Positions 9,012 to 15,788 of a DNA stretch of 59,789 bases are shown one piece after another; within the stretch, counting starts at the first letter, position 1; every line of letters begins with the position of its first letter. The stretch is from Candidatus Bathyarchaeota archaeon (GTDB lineage Archaea > Thermoproteota > Bathyarchaeia > Bathyarchaeales > Bathycorpusculaceae), in contig CAVTZU010000014.1 in assembly GCA_963739305.1 (NCBI GenBank), positions 1-59,789 on the forward strand, written 5' to 3'. A program made the translations under genes and the position numbers. The notes beneath the pieces are model-generated. The model had not been told where the DNA came from. It did not search any database and saw only the letters and a list, made by a program, of their open reading frames with translations.

Positions 9012-9107
9012 TGGCGGGCCCGCAGGGATTTGAACCCTGGGTGTCCGGTCTTTCCAGACTTCCGGCTCCGAAGGCCGACGCCTTAATCCTGACTGGGCTA
9101 CGGGCCC
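9012..9107 (-). tRNA. tRNA-Arg(TCG) with 17-nt non-canonical intron (9043-9059, position 45/46)
   Basis: GGGCCCG acceptor stem, anticodon loop CT-TCG-GA, CAGGG-TTCAAAT-CCCTG T arm, encoded CCA; insert forms CCGG-AAG...CCGG-ACA bulge-helix-bulge. Confidence 0.9.
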
Positions 9108-9210: not shown

Positions 9211-9426
9211 ATGTCGCTAAGAAAAATCGAGCTAGCAACTTTGGAAAGTGTCCCTCATAGAGTGGACAACCTCAAGAGAAGCCTAGAAATCATCTATGGA
9301 GCAAGACTCCAAGCATTCCCGCGAGACATTCCGATGGATCGACTTTTCCCAACAGAGGATTTCCTTGAAAATGACAAACTTGCGCTCGTTTTCATGAAGA
9401 CCGTCAACGAAGACTACGACGTTCCA
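9211..9426 (+). pseudogene. 5' part of tandem ParB/Srx-domain gene interrupted by the integrated element
   Basis: LFPTEDFLE...DYDVP; continues in frame at 15025 after excision. Confidence 0.9.
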
Positions 9427-9450
9427 ATAATAACGAGTCTAGCGCACTAA
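9421..9450. repeat. attL: core GTTCCA (9421-9426) plus arm ATAATAAC-N5-TAGCGCACTAA
   Basis: Core repeated directly at 15019-15024; arm is an inverted copy of 14995-15018. Confidence 0.85.
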
Positions 9451-9496
9451 AATCATAAGCTACATAGAAAAAAGAAGGGAAGTGTAGCGTACGCTC

Positions 9497-9643
9497 CTAA
9501 GCTGCTAGGCCTTCTTGCAGTTGGAGTATGCCTGTGCGCATAACGTAGTCTATGAAATCTTGGAAGTTATCAAAGGCCAACTGTTCTTTTAGTTCCCGGT
9601 AGAAGTATTTGAGATCTATTTCAGTTTGGATTAGTTCCTTCAT
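9497..9643 (-). CDS. Small hypothetical protein (48 aa)
   Basis: GAGGTGA RBS then MKELIQTEIDLKYFYRELKEQLAFDNFQDFIDYVMRTGILQLQEGLAA*, followed by a T-rich terminator; below ORF-track cutoff. Confidence 0.6.
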   Translation of the reverse strand: MKELIQTEIDLKYFYRELKEQLAFDNFQDFIDYVMRTGILQLQEGLAA

Positions 9644-9793
9644 GTCATCACCTCGAGACTTTATTAGCCGGTGGTAAAGTTAGGGTTTGGGAATTAACTA
9701 AGGCATATCTATGACTCATTGATATAGGCCAAAGTCTTTTTGTCCCAGTAATCTTTGACAGAAAGAAAGCGATTCTATGTTACTCGATAGTAG

Positions 9794-10451
9794 CTAGATA
9801 TGATAAATTCTGTCAATATCTTCTTCCCAAGAACCCTTTACATAAGCAGTAGTCGAGTCTAGTCTTCTCAATCCCATGAACTCTTTAAGCTTCCAGGCAT
9901 CGCTGCGGAAAACTAATCTTCCGTAAATGGTTTCAGTCACGCTTCTGAACCAATGCGGAAATCTGTTTGTTGTCTGATATATGATCCAATATGTCTCTCT
10001 TGCGCCCTAACGGTTTGTTCCAAAAGAAAGCTAGATCCTCAAGAGCTGGGTATCTTCCTCTTGGAAATACATAGCTATCTTCTGTTGGAACATTCACGAG
10101 CCAATCTTCAAACTTCCTAGTGAAATATCCTAGACTTCCTCTTTTAGGAAGTACAATCTTCTTTCTTAATTCTCCATGCTTCAACGTCTGCACATTAGCT
10201 AATTCAATCCGTGACTTGTAGATTCTGAATTGCAGCTTTCTAAGTTTCAGGACCTCACTAATCCTCAATCCGGTTAGAATCAAGAGACAAACTAGAGCCT
10301 GGTCTCGTTGCTGATAATCAGTTTCGTTATCAGATTTGTATGGCCACTTGCATTTATCAACTAAGTTTTCCAAGTCATGCCATAGCCTTTCATCTAAGAA
10401 TATCGGTATATCCGTAACCTTCCGCTTTCGTTTCTTCCTAGAACCCTGCAT
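9794..10451 (-). CDS. Small XerC-like tyrosine recombinase (catalytic domain only), frameshift near 9995
   Basis: LTGLRISE (Arg I) and TLKH (Lys); after a shift in an AGAGAG run it reads FPHWFR (HxxR), FMGL and TTAYV (catalytic Tyr) to TAG at 9794. Confidence 0.85.
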
Positions 10452-10510
10452 TTTTACCTCACAATCCCATAACATAGAAGACATAATCTACAAATGTCTT
10501 TTAGTATGAT

Positions 10511-11257
10511 CTATTCGCCTTCCTCAGAGTCTTCTATGGATTTGCTAACCTCCTTGGTGGCTTGTGAACTGTTAAGGAAGGTGTGCTTCAAATGTTTGAT
10601 AATTTCTCGTTTAACTTCTTCTGCTTCAAGATTGTACTGTCTTCCTATGTCCTTCATGTTTGGATGATTCATGTACAGTCTCGCTAGTTGGCAGCATAGA
10701 GGTTGCTCGAACATCGGTACTTCCTTTTTCATACTGAAAATAGCGTCATCTTTGCAGTTATACGAGATTGAAGTCTTAGGCAGATCATTAAGAAAGTAAT
10801 GGTCATTATTGTAGAAGTCAGTTACCTTAGCGTTGTGTAGGCTAATCTTACTTATTCGAGCATCTAAGATGTCTGAGTCCATGAATCCTGAATCAACAAA
10901 CTTAGCGGAAGGTGCTACACCGATTAGGCAGCAGTCATAGTGCCGGATGAGTTGGATTAAGTCCATGATCTTCTTGTTTTGCTCTGTCATAAAGCTGAGT
11001 TTCTTGATGTGTTTTCCAGCTTCATCTAGAACATAGGTCTTCTTGCCTGGAGCGTGTTTAAGCCAATCTTCCAGGTCCGGATAGTTGGTTATTTGCTGAA
11101 CGTAATAAGATTCTGTCTTAATGTTCGTTGCAAAATGTTTTCGGTATTCGTTGTCATGGCAGATTTCCATTAGAAGCATGGATATGTTTGTTTTTCCAGA
11201 TCCTTTGTAACCATCTATAAAGATGATCGCGCCATCAAGTTTCAGGATTGTTTCCAA
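10511..11257 (-). CDS. P-loop ATPase, Zot/viral morphogenesis-packaging-like, with C-terminal HTH-like segment
   Basis: Walker A GYKGSGKT, ATNI, Walker B YVLDEAG, QLIRH; C-terminal MKDIGRQYNLEAEEVKREI. Confidence 0.75.
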   Translation of the reverse strand: METILKLDGAIIFIDGYKGSGKTNISMLLMEICHDNEYRKHFATNIKTESYYVQQITNYPDLEDWLKHAPGKKTYVLDEAGKHIKKLSFMTEQNKKIMDLIQLIRHYDCCLIGVAPSAKFVDSGFMDSDILDARISKISLHNAKVTDFYNNDHYFLNDLPKTSISYNCKDDAIFSMKKEVPMFEQPLCCQLARLYMNHPNMKDIGRQYNLEAEEVKREIIKHLKHTFLNSSQATKEVSKSIEDSEEGE

Positions 11258-11579
11258 TGGTCCCGGAACTATTATCCTGGTTAGGAATTTCTGTCCTCCT
11301 CATACTATATCGCTTTCGTGTATCACCTAAGATAGCTGATAACTTGGTTAGTTCGGTGCAAGATGCCATGAAGTCTGACATACCTAGAATTTCGATTATC
11401 TTCAATGCTCTTTCTCGTCTGTTCTTGATCTGCATTATTTCAGGCCAATGCTTAATGAGAGTGTAAATGTCGCCATATGAACCTAAGAGACCGAGCATTT
11501 TTAGGTCGTCATGTTTTTCTGAGGCTTGGCCTCCGAGGTAGATTTGTTGCTCAACGTTGAAATCTGATCGTGTACTCAT
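11235..11579 (-). CDS. Hypothetical element protein
   Basis: ATGA overlap with upstream gene; overlaps ATPase start. Confidence 0.65.
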   Translation of the reverse strand: MSTRSDFNVEQQIYLGGQASEKHDDLKMLGLLGSYGDIYTLIKHWPEIMQIKNRRERALKIIEILGMSDFMASCTELTKLSAILGDTRKRYSMRRTEIPNQDNSSGTIGNNPET

Positions 11580-12001
11580 TGAGTTTTGCCTCGATTCCAC
11601 CAATGTTTCTTAGCTGCCGGTGTTACTTCTGGTGCCGGTTGAGTGCTTATTGCAGGAAGATTAATGGACACCGGCATAGTTTCTTGACGTTTCGCATTAG
11701 CCATAAGAATTCCTTCCTTTCTGCCTTCACCTTCAATAGCTATACTGTAAACGTCTTCCATGACAGCAACATCTTTCCAGAATCCCATTTCTTCCTGGTA
11801 TTCGTTAGCTATCAAACGCATGGCACTATGTCCGTAAAAATCGTGTTCGGTTAGTCTTGCTTTTTCTCTTTCGTCACGCATATTCAGGAGATAGGTAAAG
11901 ATGTCTTCGTCAGCTGAGAGTCCTAATCGTGCCCGTATGATCTGCCGTATTTCTTCTACCATTTCCTTGAATTGTTCCGGATTCATGTCTTGTTCTGTCA
12001 A
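11576..12001 (-). CDS. Hypothetical element protein (YSIAIEGEGRKE motif)
   Basis: ATGA overlaps at both ends (translational coupling). Confidence 0.7.
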   Translation of the reverse strand: MTEQDMNPEQFKEMVEEIRQIIRARLGLSADEDIFTYLLNMRDEREKARLTEHDFYGHSAMRLIANEYQEEMGFWKDVAVMEDVYSIAIEGEGRKEGILMANAKRQETMPVSINLPAISTQPAPEVTPAAKKHWWNRGKTQ

Positions 12002-12414
12002 ATTCGGAGCCTACCACTAATCAGTAAGTAGTTAATCACTATGCCAGCGATTCCCATGATAATCACAATCCAAAGCACAATGTTCTCTTTGGTTTTACCA
12101 ATGTCTCTATATCTCGCATGGAAGGCCTCTAGGAAATTGATTCTCCTCGCTTGTTGATAGCTCAAAATCGGAGGCACAACATTGTTATCTTTCGTGAAAT
12201 GAATCGCTTCCGTAGCATAAGGCATACATTCAACTGCCCACTTTCCGCCTTTAATCGGGATAAGACAGTCCTGAGTGTATTTGATCGCCCATTCACGGCG
12301 TTTACCTTTAGCCTTGTCAATGATTATTTTCTGATTTCGACCGTCAGGCTTACGCCAATAGACTTTTTCTGGATTTTCTCTTACTCTAACAAGAATTTTT
12401 CCTTTATTGAACAT
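11998..12414 (-). CDS. Basic protein with C-terminal transmembrane helix
   Basis: GGAGG RBS; IVLWIVIIMGIAGIVINYLLI. Confidence 0.7.
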   Translation of the reverse strand: MFNKGKILVRVRENPEKVYWRKPDGRNQKIIIDKAKGKRREWAIKYTQDCLIPIKGGKWAVECMPYATEAIHFTKDNNVVPPILSYQQARRINFLEAFHARYRDIGKTKENIVLWIVIIMGIAGIVINYLLISGRLRI

Positions 12415-12419
12415 TCTAC

Positions 12420-12596
12420 TTATTCCTCCTGCCTATTTCTGTTGAAACACTTGGCATGGTAAAATTCCTTGAATGCATGATAATGTCGAACTACGATCTG
12501 ATCGCCAAGCTTGAAACTTCTGCTACATGAGAAACATTCTGAGGCCGGTATCTCAGACTTATCGAGTAACTTGAAAAAAGTGGTCTTAATGCTCAT
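12420..12596 (-). CDS. Small zinc-finger protein (58 aa, CxxC...HxxC)
   Basis: GAGGGTGA RBS; MSIKTTFF...ECFSC...FYHAKCFNRNRQEE*; below ORF-track cutoff. Confidence 0.7.
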   Translation of the reverse strand: MSIKTTFFKLLDKSEIPASECFSCSRSFKLGDQIVVRHYHAFKEFYHAKCFNRNRQEE

Positions 12597-12625
12597 TTTG
12601 AGAAATCACCCTCAGGACCAAATAG

Positions 12626-12855
12626 GAGGTGTATATGTGTGTAGAGGTGTACTATGGGAGGTGTACTTACTTCTCTACTTCTCTCTTCTCTCTTAAGCTG
12701 CATACGCTCATACACTACTACACACATACACCCTACACACATAGACTCAAGATTCATAATGAAAGGTTCATAGGTTTGAATTCTGGAGGGGGGAAAAATG
12801 AAAGGCCGTCGAGTACACCTGTCTACACATGTACATGTACACCTACACCTCTACG
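12626..12855. repeat. Origin-like repeat region of the element
   Basis: Direct GAGGTGTA x3, several inverted TACACC(T) copies, 17-18-bp inverted repeat, pyrimidine tract, G run, GTACATGTAC palindrome. Confidence 0.55.
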
Positions 12856-13082
12856 CGTCGTATCTTGTCGTTCACTTTATCCACTTCAAAACCTTGATCG
12901 CCGGTAGCTTGCAGGTCCTCCAGGTACTCGATAACTCTAGGCCGAGAAAGACCTTCTTTAACCGCAAATCGTGCGGCAGTCTGAGTCAAAGGGATCTCTT
13001 TGAACTCGTTAAGTAGTCCTTGAGTGAAACGTGCGAGTCTATCATAACGCTCTCGTTTTTTGTCAGCTCCATCGCCCCCCAC
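12843..13082 (-). CDS. Small winged-helix-like DNA-binding protein
   Basis: AARFAVKEGLSRPRVIEYLEDL...FEVD..KIRR helix-turn-helix plus wing pattern. Confidence 0.55.
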   Translation of the reverse strand: MGGDGADKKRERYDRLARFTQGLLNEFKEIPLTQTAARFAVKEGLSRPRVIEYLEDLQATGDQGFEVDKVNDKIRRVEV

Positions 13083-13084
13083 TC

Positions 13085-13204
13085 TTAGGCCCCCCGTTTT
13101 TCGCCTCGCAGGATTGCCCGGCAGTCACTAATCTGAGCTTCAATGTCCAGAAGTTTATCGCGGACCCGTTGTAGCTTGACCTCGGCAGATTCGGCCTCGG
13201 TCAT
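13085..13204 (-). CDS. Small coiled-coil peptide (39 aa)
   Basis: ATG directly after the RHH stop; MTEAESAEVKLQRVRDKLLDIEAQISDCRAILRGEKRGA*. Confidence 0.5.
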   Translation of the reverse strand: MTEAESAEVKLQRVRDKLLDIEAQISDCRAILRGEKRGA

Positions 13205-13363
13205 TTAGAAAGACCGAGCCTCCAGAGCACGTTTAACTATTGAGCGGACCGCATGAGAAAGATTCAGATATTTGCCTTCGTTGACTAAGGCCTGAATTTG
13301 TGCTTTCTCAACCGATGGAATGCGGGCAACAATGTATGAATCGTTGAGTTTTTCGCGTTTCAT
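13205..13363 (-). CDS. Ribbon-helix-helix (CopG/Arc-like) regulator (52 aa)
   Basis: YIVARIP..EKAQIQALVNEGKYLNLSHAVRSIV, typical archaeal RHH pattern; below ORF-track cutoff. Confidence 0.75.
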   Translation of the reverse strand: MKREKLNDSYIVARIPSVEKAQIQALVNEGKYLNLSHAVRSIVKRALEARSF

Positions 13364-13400
13364 ACACGGATGAGATAATAAACCTTAAGTAATACATTCA

Positions 13401-13850
13401 GTGAAACATCAATCCATGAACATAATTTCACCTGATGAAATGCTGAAGAAATATGGAAAGTGGATTAATCGAGATAAATTCATCAATTTAGTCGCTCAGG
13501 AGAGACACGTAGGTAACCGTCAAGCCTGGAATATCATAAAGAAAGAGTCTCACGCAATCAAACACGTCTATACTGATCGGAGCACAGTCTACGGACTAGA
13601 AGAATTTGGGCCTCCAAAACCGAAGATTGAAGGGAATTTCCAGCGTTTCGGCTTCTTTCAATGGTTAAACGCGAGAGCTGAGAGACAGAAGAAAGAGCAA
13701 ATCGAGTATAGAAAAGAGATATTACTAGATAAAATTCACTATGAAGAACTCTTAGCCGAAGAAAACCCTGTAGAATTTGAAATTATGAAGAAATGCGCTG
13801 AAAAAGACAGAGAAATGTTAAAACTCATCGAAAGCGAAGAAAAAAAGTAG
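13401..13850 (+). CDS. Hypothetical protein divergent from RHH gene, possible wHTH N-terminus (repressor or excisionase candidate)
   Basis: Only plus-strand gene of the element; converges on the integrase. Confidence 0.55.
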   Translation: MKHQSMNIISPDEMLKKYGKWINRDKFINLVAQERHVGNRQAWNIIKKESHAIKHVYTDRSTVYGLEEFGPPKPKIEGNFQRFGFFQWLNARAERQKKEQIEYRKEILLDKIHYEELLAEENPVEFEIMKKCAEKDREMLKLIESEEKK

Positions 13851-13852
13851 GA

Positions 13853-14941
13853 TTAGGTTTGCTGTCTTAGTTCTCGGACTGCCTTTTCCAGGTTAACTAG
13901 CATTTCCTCGGTTCGTTCCAATCGTTTCTTCAGATCCTCATTCTCTCTCTTGATGTCTTCCTGAATAATCATGCGTTGTGGCTTGATGTTTAGATAATGA
14001 TTGTAGAGTTTCGGGTACTTCTGTTCAATGCCTTCCTTCAGTCTAAGATAAGTTGCGTCACCGTGAGGAATTGCTTTTCCGACGATGTACTTAGCTTCTG
14101 AATCGCTGAATCCGCCTTTCAAGAGTGAATTGAATGTCCATGCTCGTATTCGATGAAACCTCACTAGGCCAGTCGTGTTTAGGTTGGCTTGATGTGCGAC
14201 ACGTTTGATAAAGGTGTTCAAACCGCTTTTGGATATGCTGAAGGGTGACTGGTCAGGGTAGAGTTTCCAGTATTCTTTCAATGCGTAGATGGCTAATGGA
14301 TTCAACACTGCTAGGCGTGGGACATGTGTTTTGGTTCTGATAGTCTCGAAATAGACGTATTCTTTGCCTTCTGCATCTGCCTTCTTGATGTGCGCTTGAA
14401 TCAGATCTTTGTCCAGTTGAATGAAGTCGTGTTCCTCCCATCCTAGACTGCACGCGGAAGAAATCAGAGCCTTACCTCGCACGTCAGCGACATCGTACAT
14501 CTTTCCCAAGTCGCCGTTAGCAAAATAATGACTGTGCGTGTCATCCTCTCCGTTTATCCTCTTTCCTTTCAGCAGTAGTGGTTTTTCTAGGTACATGCCG
14601 AAACTCTGGACAGCCGTCATAACTCCGCTTATGCCGTTTGCTGAAAGACTCTTGCCAGGAACGACGGTTAGGTTGCTTGCGTCTTTCATGTGTCCGTGTC
14701 GGTGCTTCCTCGTGTAAACATGGCCTTCACCGACGGGTTCACTGTTCTGAAACTGCAATAACAGAGTTTTCATTTCTTTGGTTCCTAACGCCTTCCACTG
14801 TTCAAGGCTAAGATTCTTTTCTTTCCCTAACCATTTGAAGAAGAAGCTGATTCTCCAAATATAGGTTGAACGTGTGCTTTTAGTGCGGCACTCACTTAAC
14901 CAACTTGACACGTCTACGTCGCTCAAGATGTTGGAACTCAT
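13853..14941 (-). CDS. Tyrosine integrase with core-binding domain and divergent active site
   Basis: STRSTY..FFKWL N-domain; SLGWE (Arg I position), RTKT, FHRIR, IVGK, DATYL; C-terminal coiled coil; adjacent to attR. Confidence 0.85.
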   Translation of the reverse strand: MSSNILSDVDVSSWLSECRTKSTRSTYIWRISFFFKWLGKEKNLSLEQWKALGTKEMKTLLLQFQNSEPVGEGHVYTRKHRHGHMKDASNLTVVPGKSLSANGISGVMTAVQSFGMYLEKPLLLKGKRINGEDDTHSHYFANGDLGKMYDVADVRGKALISSACSLGWEEHDFIQLDKDLIQAHIKKADAEGKEYVYFETIRTKTHVPRLAVLNPLAIYALKEYWKLYPDQSPFSISKSGLNTFIKRVAHQANLNTTGLVRFHRIRAWTFNSLLKGGFSDSEAKYIVGKAIPHGDATYLRLKEGIEQKYPKLYNHYLNIKPQRMIIQEDIKRENEDLKKRLERTEEMLVNLEKAVRELRQQT

Positions 14942-14994
14942 TCCAGATCACTACTAGAAGGTAATAGCACTTTAGATTTATAAGCCTTTGTATC

Positions 14995-15024
14995 TTAGTG
15001 CGCTAATTAGGTTACTATGTTCCA
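14995..15024. repeat. attR: arm TTAGTGCGCTA-N5-GTTACTAT plus core GTTCCA (15019-15024)
   Basis: Inverted relative to attL arm with identical spacing. Confidence 0.85.
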
Positions 15025-15591
15025 ATCATAGCCGTCGAAAGAGGTGAAGACTACTTCGTTCTCGACGGCCATCACAGGTCCTTCATCCATGTAAAACTGA
15101 AAAAGAAAACCATCAAAGCAAGAGTCCTGGTATTCCCCAAAAACTCAAGCTACCGCGAAGTCTCAAGAGCCTCATTCGAGGATTTCCCAATAAAAGAGAT
15201 CAGGAAGATTGAGGACCCAATTCTGAAAGTTTGGGGAAGCATACTCAACATTCTCAAACAGTATGAAGCTTTATACCACGTCCACTTTCACATGGAAAAA
15301 AAGAACCTTGTTCTAGAAAAATTACACCCAACGCAACCTCAGATCATGACATCACAGCTCAAAGGGATGAAAAGAATAGTTGCCCCGATCACATGCATTG
15401 AGTGCAACGGAGAGTACTACGTTTTGGATGGTCATGCAAGATGCATCCGAGCCCGACAGCTAGGTTCAGAATCGATACAGGCAATGGTCCTGCAACCGGA
15501 GGTCCACGTGAACTTCGGGATCATCAAGACCGCCAATGAAATGAAGCTCAAAAGCCTCGACGACATTTCGATCTGCAAAGACGCACACTAA
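15019..15591 (+). pseudogene. 3' part of tandem ParB/Srx-domain gene
   Basis: Stop-free from 15019: VPIIAVERGEDYFVLDGHHR...LHPTQ...APITC...YYVLDGHAR. Confidence 0.9.
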
Positions 15592-15685: not shown

Positions 15686-15760
15686 GGGCCGGTAGCTCAG
15701 CTTGGCTGGAGCATTCGGCTGATAACCGAAAGGTCGCCGGTTCGAATCCGGCTCGGCCCA
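15686..15760 (+). tRNA. tRNA-Ile(GAT)
   Basis: Cloverleaf with TTCGG-CT-GAT-AA-CCGAA and GCCGG-TTCGAAT-CCGGC; CCA not encoded. Confidence 0.95.
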
Positions 15761-15788
15761 CTCCCATTTAGGTTCAGGTCGCGCGCGC

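Follow-up and report, generated by a model that had tools for sequence, protein, structure and literature searches.

Interruption of a gene by a recombinase-bearing element that lies inside the open reading frame (ORF), with precise excision rebuilding the gene, is known from bacterial switches such as the skin element in Bacillus sigK, the cyanobacterial nifD element and the Listeria comK prophage. The lineages concerned carry these elements permanently or regularly and couple excision to a programme of development or infection. Among small archaeal elements, the Sulfolobus plasmid-virus hybrid pSSVi measures about 5.7 kb, carries an SSV-type integrase and has a tRNA target. Site-specific integrative elements are already known, as is archaeal integration into protein genes: 14 of 68 thaumarchaeal integrated elements target protein genes, in 3'-distal regions (Krupovic et al. 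2019, PMC6563490), and a review of archaeal recombinases lists cases of intragenic chromosomal attachment sites (attB), none of which had been tested, and asks about their dyad symmetry (Badel et al. 2021, PMC8371274). The viruses described in a survey of Bathyarchaeia are head-tailed, filamentous or spindle-shaped (PMC10848311). In this study, a contig of 59,789 nt from a Candidatus Bathyarchaeota archaeon (CAVTZU010000014.1, assembly GCA_963739305.1; the window hereafter) was analyzed, in which an insert of 5,598 bp between two copies of the octamer GTTCCAAT interrupts a gene for a ParB/Srx-like protein. A previous sequence-only reading of this DNA had left the choice between a recent insertion and a reversible gene switch.

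Like the bacterial switches, the insert bears recombinase genes within an ORF and its precise removal rebuilds the gene, but it was found in none of the 10 congeneric genomes. It resembles pSSVi in its small size, at about 5-6 kb, and in encoding an integrase and a few small ORFs while having no recognizable capsid gene. Unlike pSSVi, it has neither an SSV-type integrase nor a tRNA target, and no sequence relationship was found. The likeness to the thaumarchaeal elements lies in the archaeal host, the tyrosine recombinases, the short attachment (att) sites and the comparison of occupied with empty sites (PMC6563490). In contrast to the 14 thaumarchaeal insertions in 3'-distal regions, the crossover falls here within the first domain of the protein (codon 71 of 260) and cuts the product to 79 aa; moreover, neither the integrase family nor the cargo is related to any that the accessible text of that study names for the thaumarchaeal elements (PMC6563490). 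Nothing resembling the insert is reported in the accessible text of the Bathyarchaeia virus survey (PMC10848311) or of a study of Asgard elements (PMC11529989). Among the papers yielded by a literature search, with supplementary tables outside its scope, none dealt with archaeal gene-splitting elements or archaeal "active lysogeny", and small integrative elements of Bathyarchaeia were not encountered there.

The two parts of the interrupted gene, 9211-9420 and 15019-15591, were joined by script and yielded 783 nt, corresponding to 260 codons and a stop codon with zero internal stops. In the occupied state, the 5' frame (ORF 9211-9450) passes through the hexamer GTTCCA at 9421-9426, enters the element and stops at 9448-9450, so that the translation of 79 aa ends with ...EDYDVPIITSLAH (...NEDYDVPIITSLAH in a longer reading). 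The same hexamer at 15019-15024 starts the frame VPIIAVERGEDYFVLDGHHR..., which runs to the stop codon at 15589-15591 and has its earliest in-frame ATG at 15292. Thus, the core positions, the reading frames and the stop-free 260-aa protein that the sequence-only reading had obtained by removing 5,598 bp were all reproduced. The repeat alone would carry little weight, as the window contains 5+2 copies of GTTCCAAT and 30+29 copies of GTTCCA, which is not above chance; it is the homology to intact orthologues that settles the split-gene call.

Searched with the 3' half of the protein, 8 of 41 genomes gave a match, the genome of origin being included in both counts among its relatives. Within the genus the 3' half was matched in 6 of 10 genomes, one of the matches being partial (33 residues). 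Six matches lie in open frames of 256-295 codons, five of them in the same genus (G001, G002, G003, G004 and G008) and one in another family of the order (G027). The joined protein aligned with these six uninterrupted ORFs over residues 2-257 with 52-66% identity, and the junction was ungapped in all six alignments (...YDVPIIAVERGEDYFVLDGHHR). Full-length orthologues measure about 255-263 aa, in agreement with the split-gene call made beforehand. A scan of one genome per species gave 19 Bathyarchaeia/Thermoproteota loci, none of which is interrupted at this site; 18 are contiguous across it, and one is stopped by a contig end after residue 88. The surroundings are conserved as well: genes for tRNA-Arg(tcg) and tRNA-Ile(gat) both flank the gene in four of six related loci, as they do in the window, with tRNA-Arg adjoining it in five and tRNA-Ile in four.

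Both halves of the target gene are free of stops and frameshifts and retain 54 of the 58 positions that are invariant across 16 orthologues, a count from which locus L100 was excluded for its frameshift. The other orthologues depart from these positions 0-5 times each and the window gene four times, so that the description of both halves as undecayed holds. The target gene is single-copy in its own genome, and the host as assembled is therefore without an intact ParB/Srx-like protein. Lesions were seen in three orthologues, namely a frameshift near the N terminus in L100 (in genome G001) and a single in-frame stop in L108 and in L113. Either these are sequencing errors, or the gene is dispensable or has been lost independently.

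The exact 8-bp repeat is embedded in an imperfect 18-nt repeat (15/18) with a spacing of 5,598. The ends of the element form terminal inverted repeats of 27 nt with 74% complementarity. In the element-borne site that joining of these ends would give (attP), half-sites GTTACTAT and ATAATAAC stand beside the spacer GTTCCA with symmetry at 7 of 8 positions, and the outer 11-nt boxes TTAGTGCGCTA and TAGCGCACTAA are a perfect inverted pair. The motif TTAGTGCG has three copies in the window, each within 140 nt of the element ends and one of them at 14880-14887; its count is ordinary, its placement unusual. Around the same spacer, the reconstructed attB shows weak dyad symmetry (5/7, as read off the strings). 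The attB and attP strings computed here are identical to those proposed earlier. The junctions are read as att sites, with the anatomy of tyrosine-recombinase core sites and not of a target-site duplication; the similarity between element end and target extends past the 8 identical bases.

Two competing explanations arise at this point: a transposon that has terminal inverted repeats and duplicates 8 bp of its target site, and an assembly artefact. The imperfect 27-nt inverted repeats and the 8-bp direct repeat would suit the former, and the estimated contamination of 7.8% of the metagenome-assembled genome (MAG) would suit the latter. However, no transposase-like ORF was detected in the element with Pfam, PHROGs or NCBIfam, and two tyrosine recombinases are present instead; the similarity past 8 bp (15/18) is that of attP/attB pairs; and, as described below, a homologous integrase stands at the same nucleotide position in an independent contig. 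Nor would a chimeric join be expected to have both junctions in frame in one orthologous gene on one contig. Both explanations are regarded as very improbable.

The ORF next to the right core encodes a very divergent tyrosine recombinase of 362 aa, termed Int362. No match to it was found in Pfam at E<=0.01 or in NCBIfam, its score for PF00589 stays below the gathering score, and a sequence-profile search against the PDB found no recombinase. Its only support from PHROGs is phrog_216 "integrase" (4.3e-5), and a precomputed PF00589 match exists for 3 of 31 homologues. The AlphaFold2 (AF2) model built from a 25-sequence alignment reached a pLDDT of 88, and a Foldseek search of the PDB with this model gave 27 matches at E<=0.001; those to XerA (5hxy, 3.2e-7), lambda Int (1z1g, 1e-5), XerH, IntI and Cre extend over both domains. 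On the basis of the model we are confident that Int362 has a two-domain tyrosine-recombinase fold, comprising an N-terminal helical core-binding domain and a catalytic domain. This fold, the short core with dyad-symmetric arms and an int gene that stays intact on integration are traits of the Xer/lambda-Int, non-SSV type (PMC8371274, PMC7253208). Int362 differs from that type in lacking Pfam, NCBIfam and PDB sequence-profile matches and in having, by a weak alignment, Glu, Ala or Gly at the putative position of the first catalytic arginine (Arg-I). An SSV-type integrase was considered and ruled out, since int is an intact ORF of 362 codons with the core 77 nt upstream of its start; attP thus lies outside the int ORF, unlike in the "suicidal" integrases of SSV type.

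Across 25 sequences of the Int362 family, K199, H258, R261 and Y293 are invariant. At the position aligned to Arg-I, every one of the 25 has E, A or G after the residues S-L-G-W; this placement comes from aligning the family profile with that of the small Xer-like recombinases, a weak match with an hhalign probability of 3%. In view of the conservation and of the repeated integrations of the family, catalytic competence of Int362 is assumed. Two observations concern the family itself. The metagenome homologue P0068 is nearly identical to Int362 over its last ~30 residues, the C-terminal coiled tail, and 41% identical over the rest, which suggests mosaic exchange between family members. The genome of origin also has a second, distant member with 24% identity on a different contig, in an open frame of 394 codons (G000:C28:49419-50192, minus strand).

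Of 401 class genomes, 28 contain an integrase match, the best of them at 41-42% identity. In ten integrase loci from species-representative genomes, the integrase is all that is common with the window; the nearest tRNA is at ~9 kb in one case and otherwise none is nearby, and no sensible direct repeats of at least 11 nt were seen. A scan of these ten loci for a 6-bp core with inverted arms, which recovered the att sites of the window as a control, gave one candidate, L046. This is a possible 4-kb element beside a 33%-identical integrase (G012:C18, flipped coordinates 6561 and 10609), in which the 10-nt sequences GTTTTGTTAC / GTAACAAAAC form a perfect inverted repeat around the core CTATAG. Its joined flanks restore no ORF.

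Closer relatives, with up to 64% identity to Int362, came from metagenomes, where a scan with the family alignment gave 31 loci (L050-L080). L051 has an integrase with 62% identity, and immediately upstream of its int gene lies the 3' part of an orthologue of the ParB/Srx-like gene. By tblastn, this fragment begins at residue 71, with 82% identity over residues 71-109, and the homology to the window ends at the same nucleotide, the core of L051 being GTGCCAAT. From this break at the same position it follows that the insertion site has been used repeatedly, which had been put forward earlier as a matter for a survey. Sister integrases with 56-62% identity to Int362 stand at two further protein genes. 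In L053, L055, L056, L057 and L058 a gene fragment directly adjoins the integrase; this fragment starts at about residue 86 of a ~353-aa protein with matches to squalene-hopene-cyclase and prenyltransferase models. In L050 and L052 the integrase stands next to the C-terminal 76 residues of a ~278-aa protein of metallo-beta-lactamase fold, which is present in 155 of 301 genomes of the class; L061 was grouped with these two solely by the similarity of 100 nt of upstream DNA. The more distantly related L063 and L064 both have a putative core at the extreme 3' end of an ORF. L054 and L059 have the integrase-proximal arm in common with the second-target group, followed by AT-rich DNA, and may be free or differently integrated forms.

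Twelve of the 31 family contigs stop 189-229 nt upstream of the integrase start, which in six measured contigs is about 110-165 nt past the putative core. Clustered ends of this kind would arise, at assumed assembler settings, when a contig from a de Bruijn graph reaches about one k-mer into shared sequence with two paths. They would fit the coexistence of occupied and unoccupied (or otherwise joined) sites in those samples, and mixtures of strains could explain them equally well.

These data lead to the question whether the insert is a reversible switch of the "active lysogeny" type, in which a regulated interruption would be relieved by conditional excision that restores the protein, followed by re-integration. 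Several properties are as such a switch would require: excision would rebuild the frame exactly, both halves are stop-free and keep most of the invariant residues, there are two intact att sites and an intact integrase, the same site is occupied in another host (L051), and the clustered ends of 12 of the 31 contigs might reflect coexisting occupied and unoccupied junctions. Yet differences between strains explain coexisting junctions equally, the frameshift or in-frame stops of L100, L108 and L113 point to a target that is dispensable in some lineages, and sister integrases in unrelated genes fit a preference for conserved sequence better than the regulation of one pathway. There is also no fixation at the level of a lineage, the element being absent from 10 of 10 congeners and the gene uninterrupted in all other species found. 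A switch is accordingly judged to be improbable. Of the two alternatives in the sequence-only reading, recent insertion is favored, and a fixed element of the skin or nifD type finds no support in the congeners, five of which have the gene uninterrupted; absence from all of them indicates a sporadic and probably recent insertion.

The explanation that we consider likely is that a circular element of 5.6 kb integrated by means of Int362 at a short core within a conserved stretch of codons and knocked out a non-essential gene, in an event that was sporadic, probably recent and in principle reversible. This is ordinary mobile-element behavior rather than a host-programmed switch. The circular, plasmid- or virus-like form of 5,598 bp would integrate at codons 71-73 of the chromosomal gene by conservative site-specific recombination. 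Int362, presumably the enzyme responsible instead of the broken small recombinase, would bind the inverted half-sites that flank the 6-bp spacer GTTCCA, in attP and more weakly in attB, and strand exchange inside the core would leave one core copy at each junction. The outcome would be a knock-out, with a 5' fragment ending at 79 aa and a 3' fragment that has no start codon at the junction. In principle, Int362 could also run the reaction backwards and so rebuild the exact gene, and present-day excision would then be possible. What would favor the site is that the peptide encoded there is conserved, so that related hosts have the site as well.

Several observations weigh against this explanation. 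The second recombinase of the element is frameshifted, and the element may thus be partly degraded. Glu, Ala or Gly at the expected Arg-I, as placed by the weak alignment, makes catalysis by Int362 doubtful. All four departures from invariant residues lie in the 3' half, and their number is at the high end of the range of 0-5, which could indicate relaxed constraint and an insertion that is not very recent. A search of the assembly for the empty site and for the circular junction found attL and attR only, a search of IMG/VR with a degenerate att pattern gave no match, and terminal overlap indicative of a circle was seen in 0 of 31 metagenome contigs. The contigs of the relatives are short and cover the integrase-side junction only. 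Finally, the sequence comes from a MAG, for which contamination is estimated at 7.8%, so that the contig is a population consensus.

Some of the same observations would be accounted for by an immobile fossil, that is an element that lost the ability to excise after integration, with a gene that is permanently inactive and headed for decay. The frameshift in the small recombinase, the residue other than Arg at the canonical Arg-I position, the concentration of the four departures in a 3' half without promoter and the lack of a second copy or free form in the assembly are all consistent with this. However, the unusual residue is common to all 25 members and hence a family trait and not a lesion; no lesion affects Int362, the other ORFs, either core or the inverted repeats, and the 260 target codons contain neither stop nor frameshift. 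A fossil is therefore seen as rather unlikely.

The coordinates of the element, its attachment sites and the neighboring genes are collected in Table 1. The content of the insert, with a GC fraction of ~0.39-0.42 against 0.45-0.51 in the flanks, is that of a low-GC integrative element carrying an integrase, which may be plasmid-like or a virus satellite. It is single-copy in the genome, and all its ORFs but one are on the minus strand. The GC difference, the single copy and the absence from all 10 congeners speak for a foreign origin.

Table 1. Features of the interrupted gene, the insert and its flanks in the window
Feature	Coordinates	Strand	Remarks
tRNA-Arg(tcg)	9012..9107	-	upstream neighbor, 314 nt from core; unused for integration
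Target gene, 5' part	9211..9420	+	codons 1-70 of tandem ParB/Srx-like protein; aligns with orthologue residues 1-70
Left crossover core GTTCCAAT (attL)	9421..9428	+	first 6 nt, GTTCCA, are the spacer between inverted half-sites
Left terminal inverted repeat, P' arm	9427..9453	+	half-site ATAATAAC, outer 11-nt box TAGCGCACTAA
Small Xer-like tyrosine recombinase	9794..10484	-	broken by one frameshift
P-loop NTPase, 248 aa	10511..11257	-	unnamed family tied to mobile elements and viruses
Four small ORFs, operon-like	11235..12596	-	122, 141, 138 and 58 aa; ends overlapping or abutting
Non-coding stretch, 246 nt	12597..12842		dense GGTGTA/TACACC iterons in both orientations
Putative regulatory module	12843..13850		79-aa winged-helix-like ORF (-), 52-aa ribbon-helix-helix ORF (-), divergent 149-aa ORF (+)
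Int362, intact very divergent tyrosine recombinase, 362 aa	13853..14941	-	gene start 77 nt from right core
Right terminal inverted repeat, P arm	14992..15018	+	box TTAGTGCGCTA, half-site GTTACTAT
Right crossover core GTTCCAAT (attR)	15019..15026	+	identical to left copy
Target gene, 3' part	15019..15591	+	codons 71-260 and stop; no start codon at junction
tRNA-Ile(gat)	15686..15761	+	downstream neighbor, 662 nt from core; unused for integration

The small recombinase has its Arg-I box, LTGLRISE, in the ORF 9933-10484 and its HWFR and ...TTAY boxes in another frame, at ~9794-9990. It matches Pfam Phage_integrase (E 1e-4), NCBIfam XerA (2e-5) and phrog_216 (1e-5); its relatives are intact and 208-216 aa long, and tblastn requires two frames in the window. 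The neighboring P-loop nucleoside triphosphatase (NTPase) matches phrog_1979 (1.4e-15) as well as Zot-like (6e-7) and DnaA-like (2e-5) PHROGs families, and the PDB sequence-profile search gave only noise. Its 41 metagenome homologues, with identities of up to 63%, have no informative names, and the nearest Atlas clusters are mostly labeled "Viruses". Nine of 401 class genomes, its own included, were matched, the eight others at 26-35% identity. It is probably the replication or maintenance ATPase of the element. For the four small ORFs, no family match was found in Pfam, PHROGs, NCBIfam or PADLOC beyond a weak one to Prok-RING_1 (0.0036); the 138-aa ORF has a C-terminal hydrophobic helix and the 58-aa ORF is zinc-finger-like.

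The iteron stretch includes 24-nt arms that are 83% complementary and may be an origin or a regulatory (operator) region. In the adjacent module, the 52-aa ORF matches NCBIfam CdrS (9e-5), and a homologue of the 79-aa ORF adjoins the family integrase in L053. Scans of the element ORFs with Pfam, PHROGs and NCBIfam recognized no capsid-like or transposase-like gene, and a promoter and terminator scan, made with bacterial models that are inapplicable to archaea, stayed at or below the shuffled expectation. No cargo of the element was found beside homologues of the ATPase or of the small recombinase in other genomes, and IMG/VR, scanned with ATPase and integrase, contained no relatives. The element family is thus unfamiliar, as had been suspected: it is absent from IMG/VR, its integrase has no Pfam match and its cargo is unshared with other family loci.

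In an Rfam scan, the two flanking tRNAs and nothing else were detected, and their distances to the core agree with the approximate 0.3 and 0.7 kb noted previously. The tRNA-Arg(tcg) call measures 96 nt in the window and in L005 and 77-79 nt in four congeners, which suggests an intron or insertion in some of the genomes only.

The interrupted protein itself was assigned at the level of the fold. Pfam ParB models score below their cut-offs: ParBc_2 reached a best E of 3.6e-6, in 5 of 6 members, and ParB_N 2e-4, and for one member ParBc_2 scored 21.0 bits with a gathering cut-off of 23.6. In a profile search of the PDB, archaeal free serine kinase reached an E of 0.026 and sulfiredoxin one of 0.18. 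The AF2 model of the orthologue L099, based on a 16-row alignment, had a pLDDT of 93 and contains the strand-helix unit twice. Foldseek matched this model to Noc (1.7e-4), ParB (4.3e-4), serine kinase (1.1e-3) and sulfiredoxin (1.6e-3), and further to 1vk1 and PadC, the overall range being E 2e-4 to 3e-3. The model is that of two ParB/Srx-fold domains in tandem, with the motifs DGHHR and DGHAR, and the ParB/Srx label given before is right at this level. The crossover is at the start of the strand preceding DGHHR in domain 1. PADLOC, applied to the target gene and to all element ORFs, gave nothing meaningful.

A bolder interpretation would see in these enzymes an undescribed clade of Bathyarchaeia tyrosine integrases, invisible to Pfam and without Arg at the Arg-I position, that is specialized in conserved codons in the middle of genes and readily re-targets, given three targets for enzymes with 56-64% identity. 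The ParB/Srx-like gene would then be no neutral landing site, and the insertion in it would be either a functional, reversible on/off switch or the deliberate inactivation of a host factor directed at element DNA. In this full form the interpretation seems rather doubtful to us.

What is noteworthy here is an integrase family that standard models miss together with its habit of landing inside protein genes. Since those models miss the integrases, such elements go unannotated in MAGs. The present locus provides a fully delimited element with both att sites and with inferred attP and attB. It thereby offers a substrate pair for the question, raised in the review of archaeal recombinases, of dyad symmetry and recombination efficiency at intragenic archaeal attB sites, and as for the symmetry, the attB found here answers weakly in the positive, with 5 of 7 positions (PMC8371274). 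If targeting of the middle of genes is true for the family, its members would be a set, provided by nature, of recombinases that are close relatives but differ in specificity.

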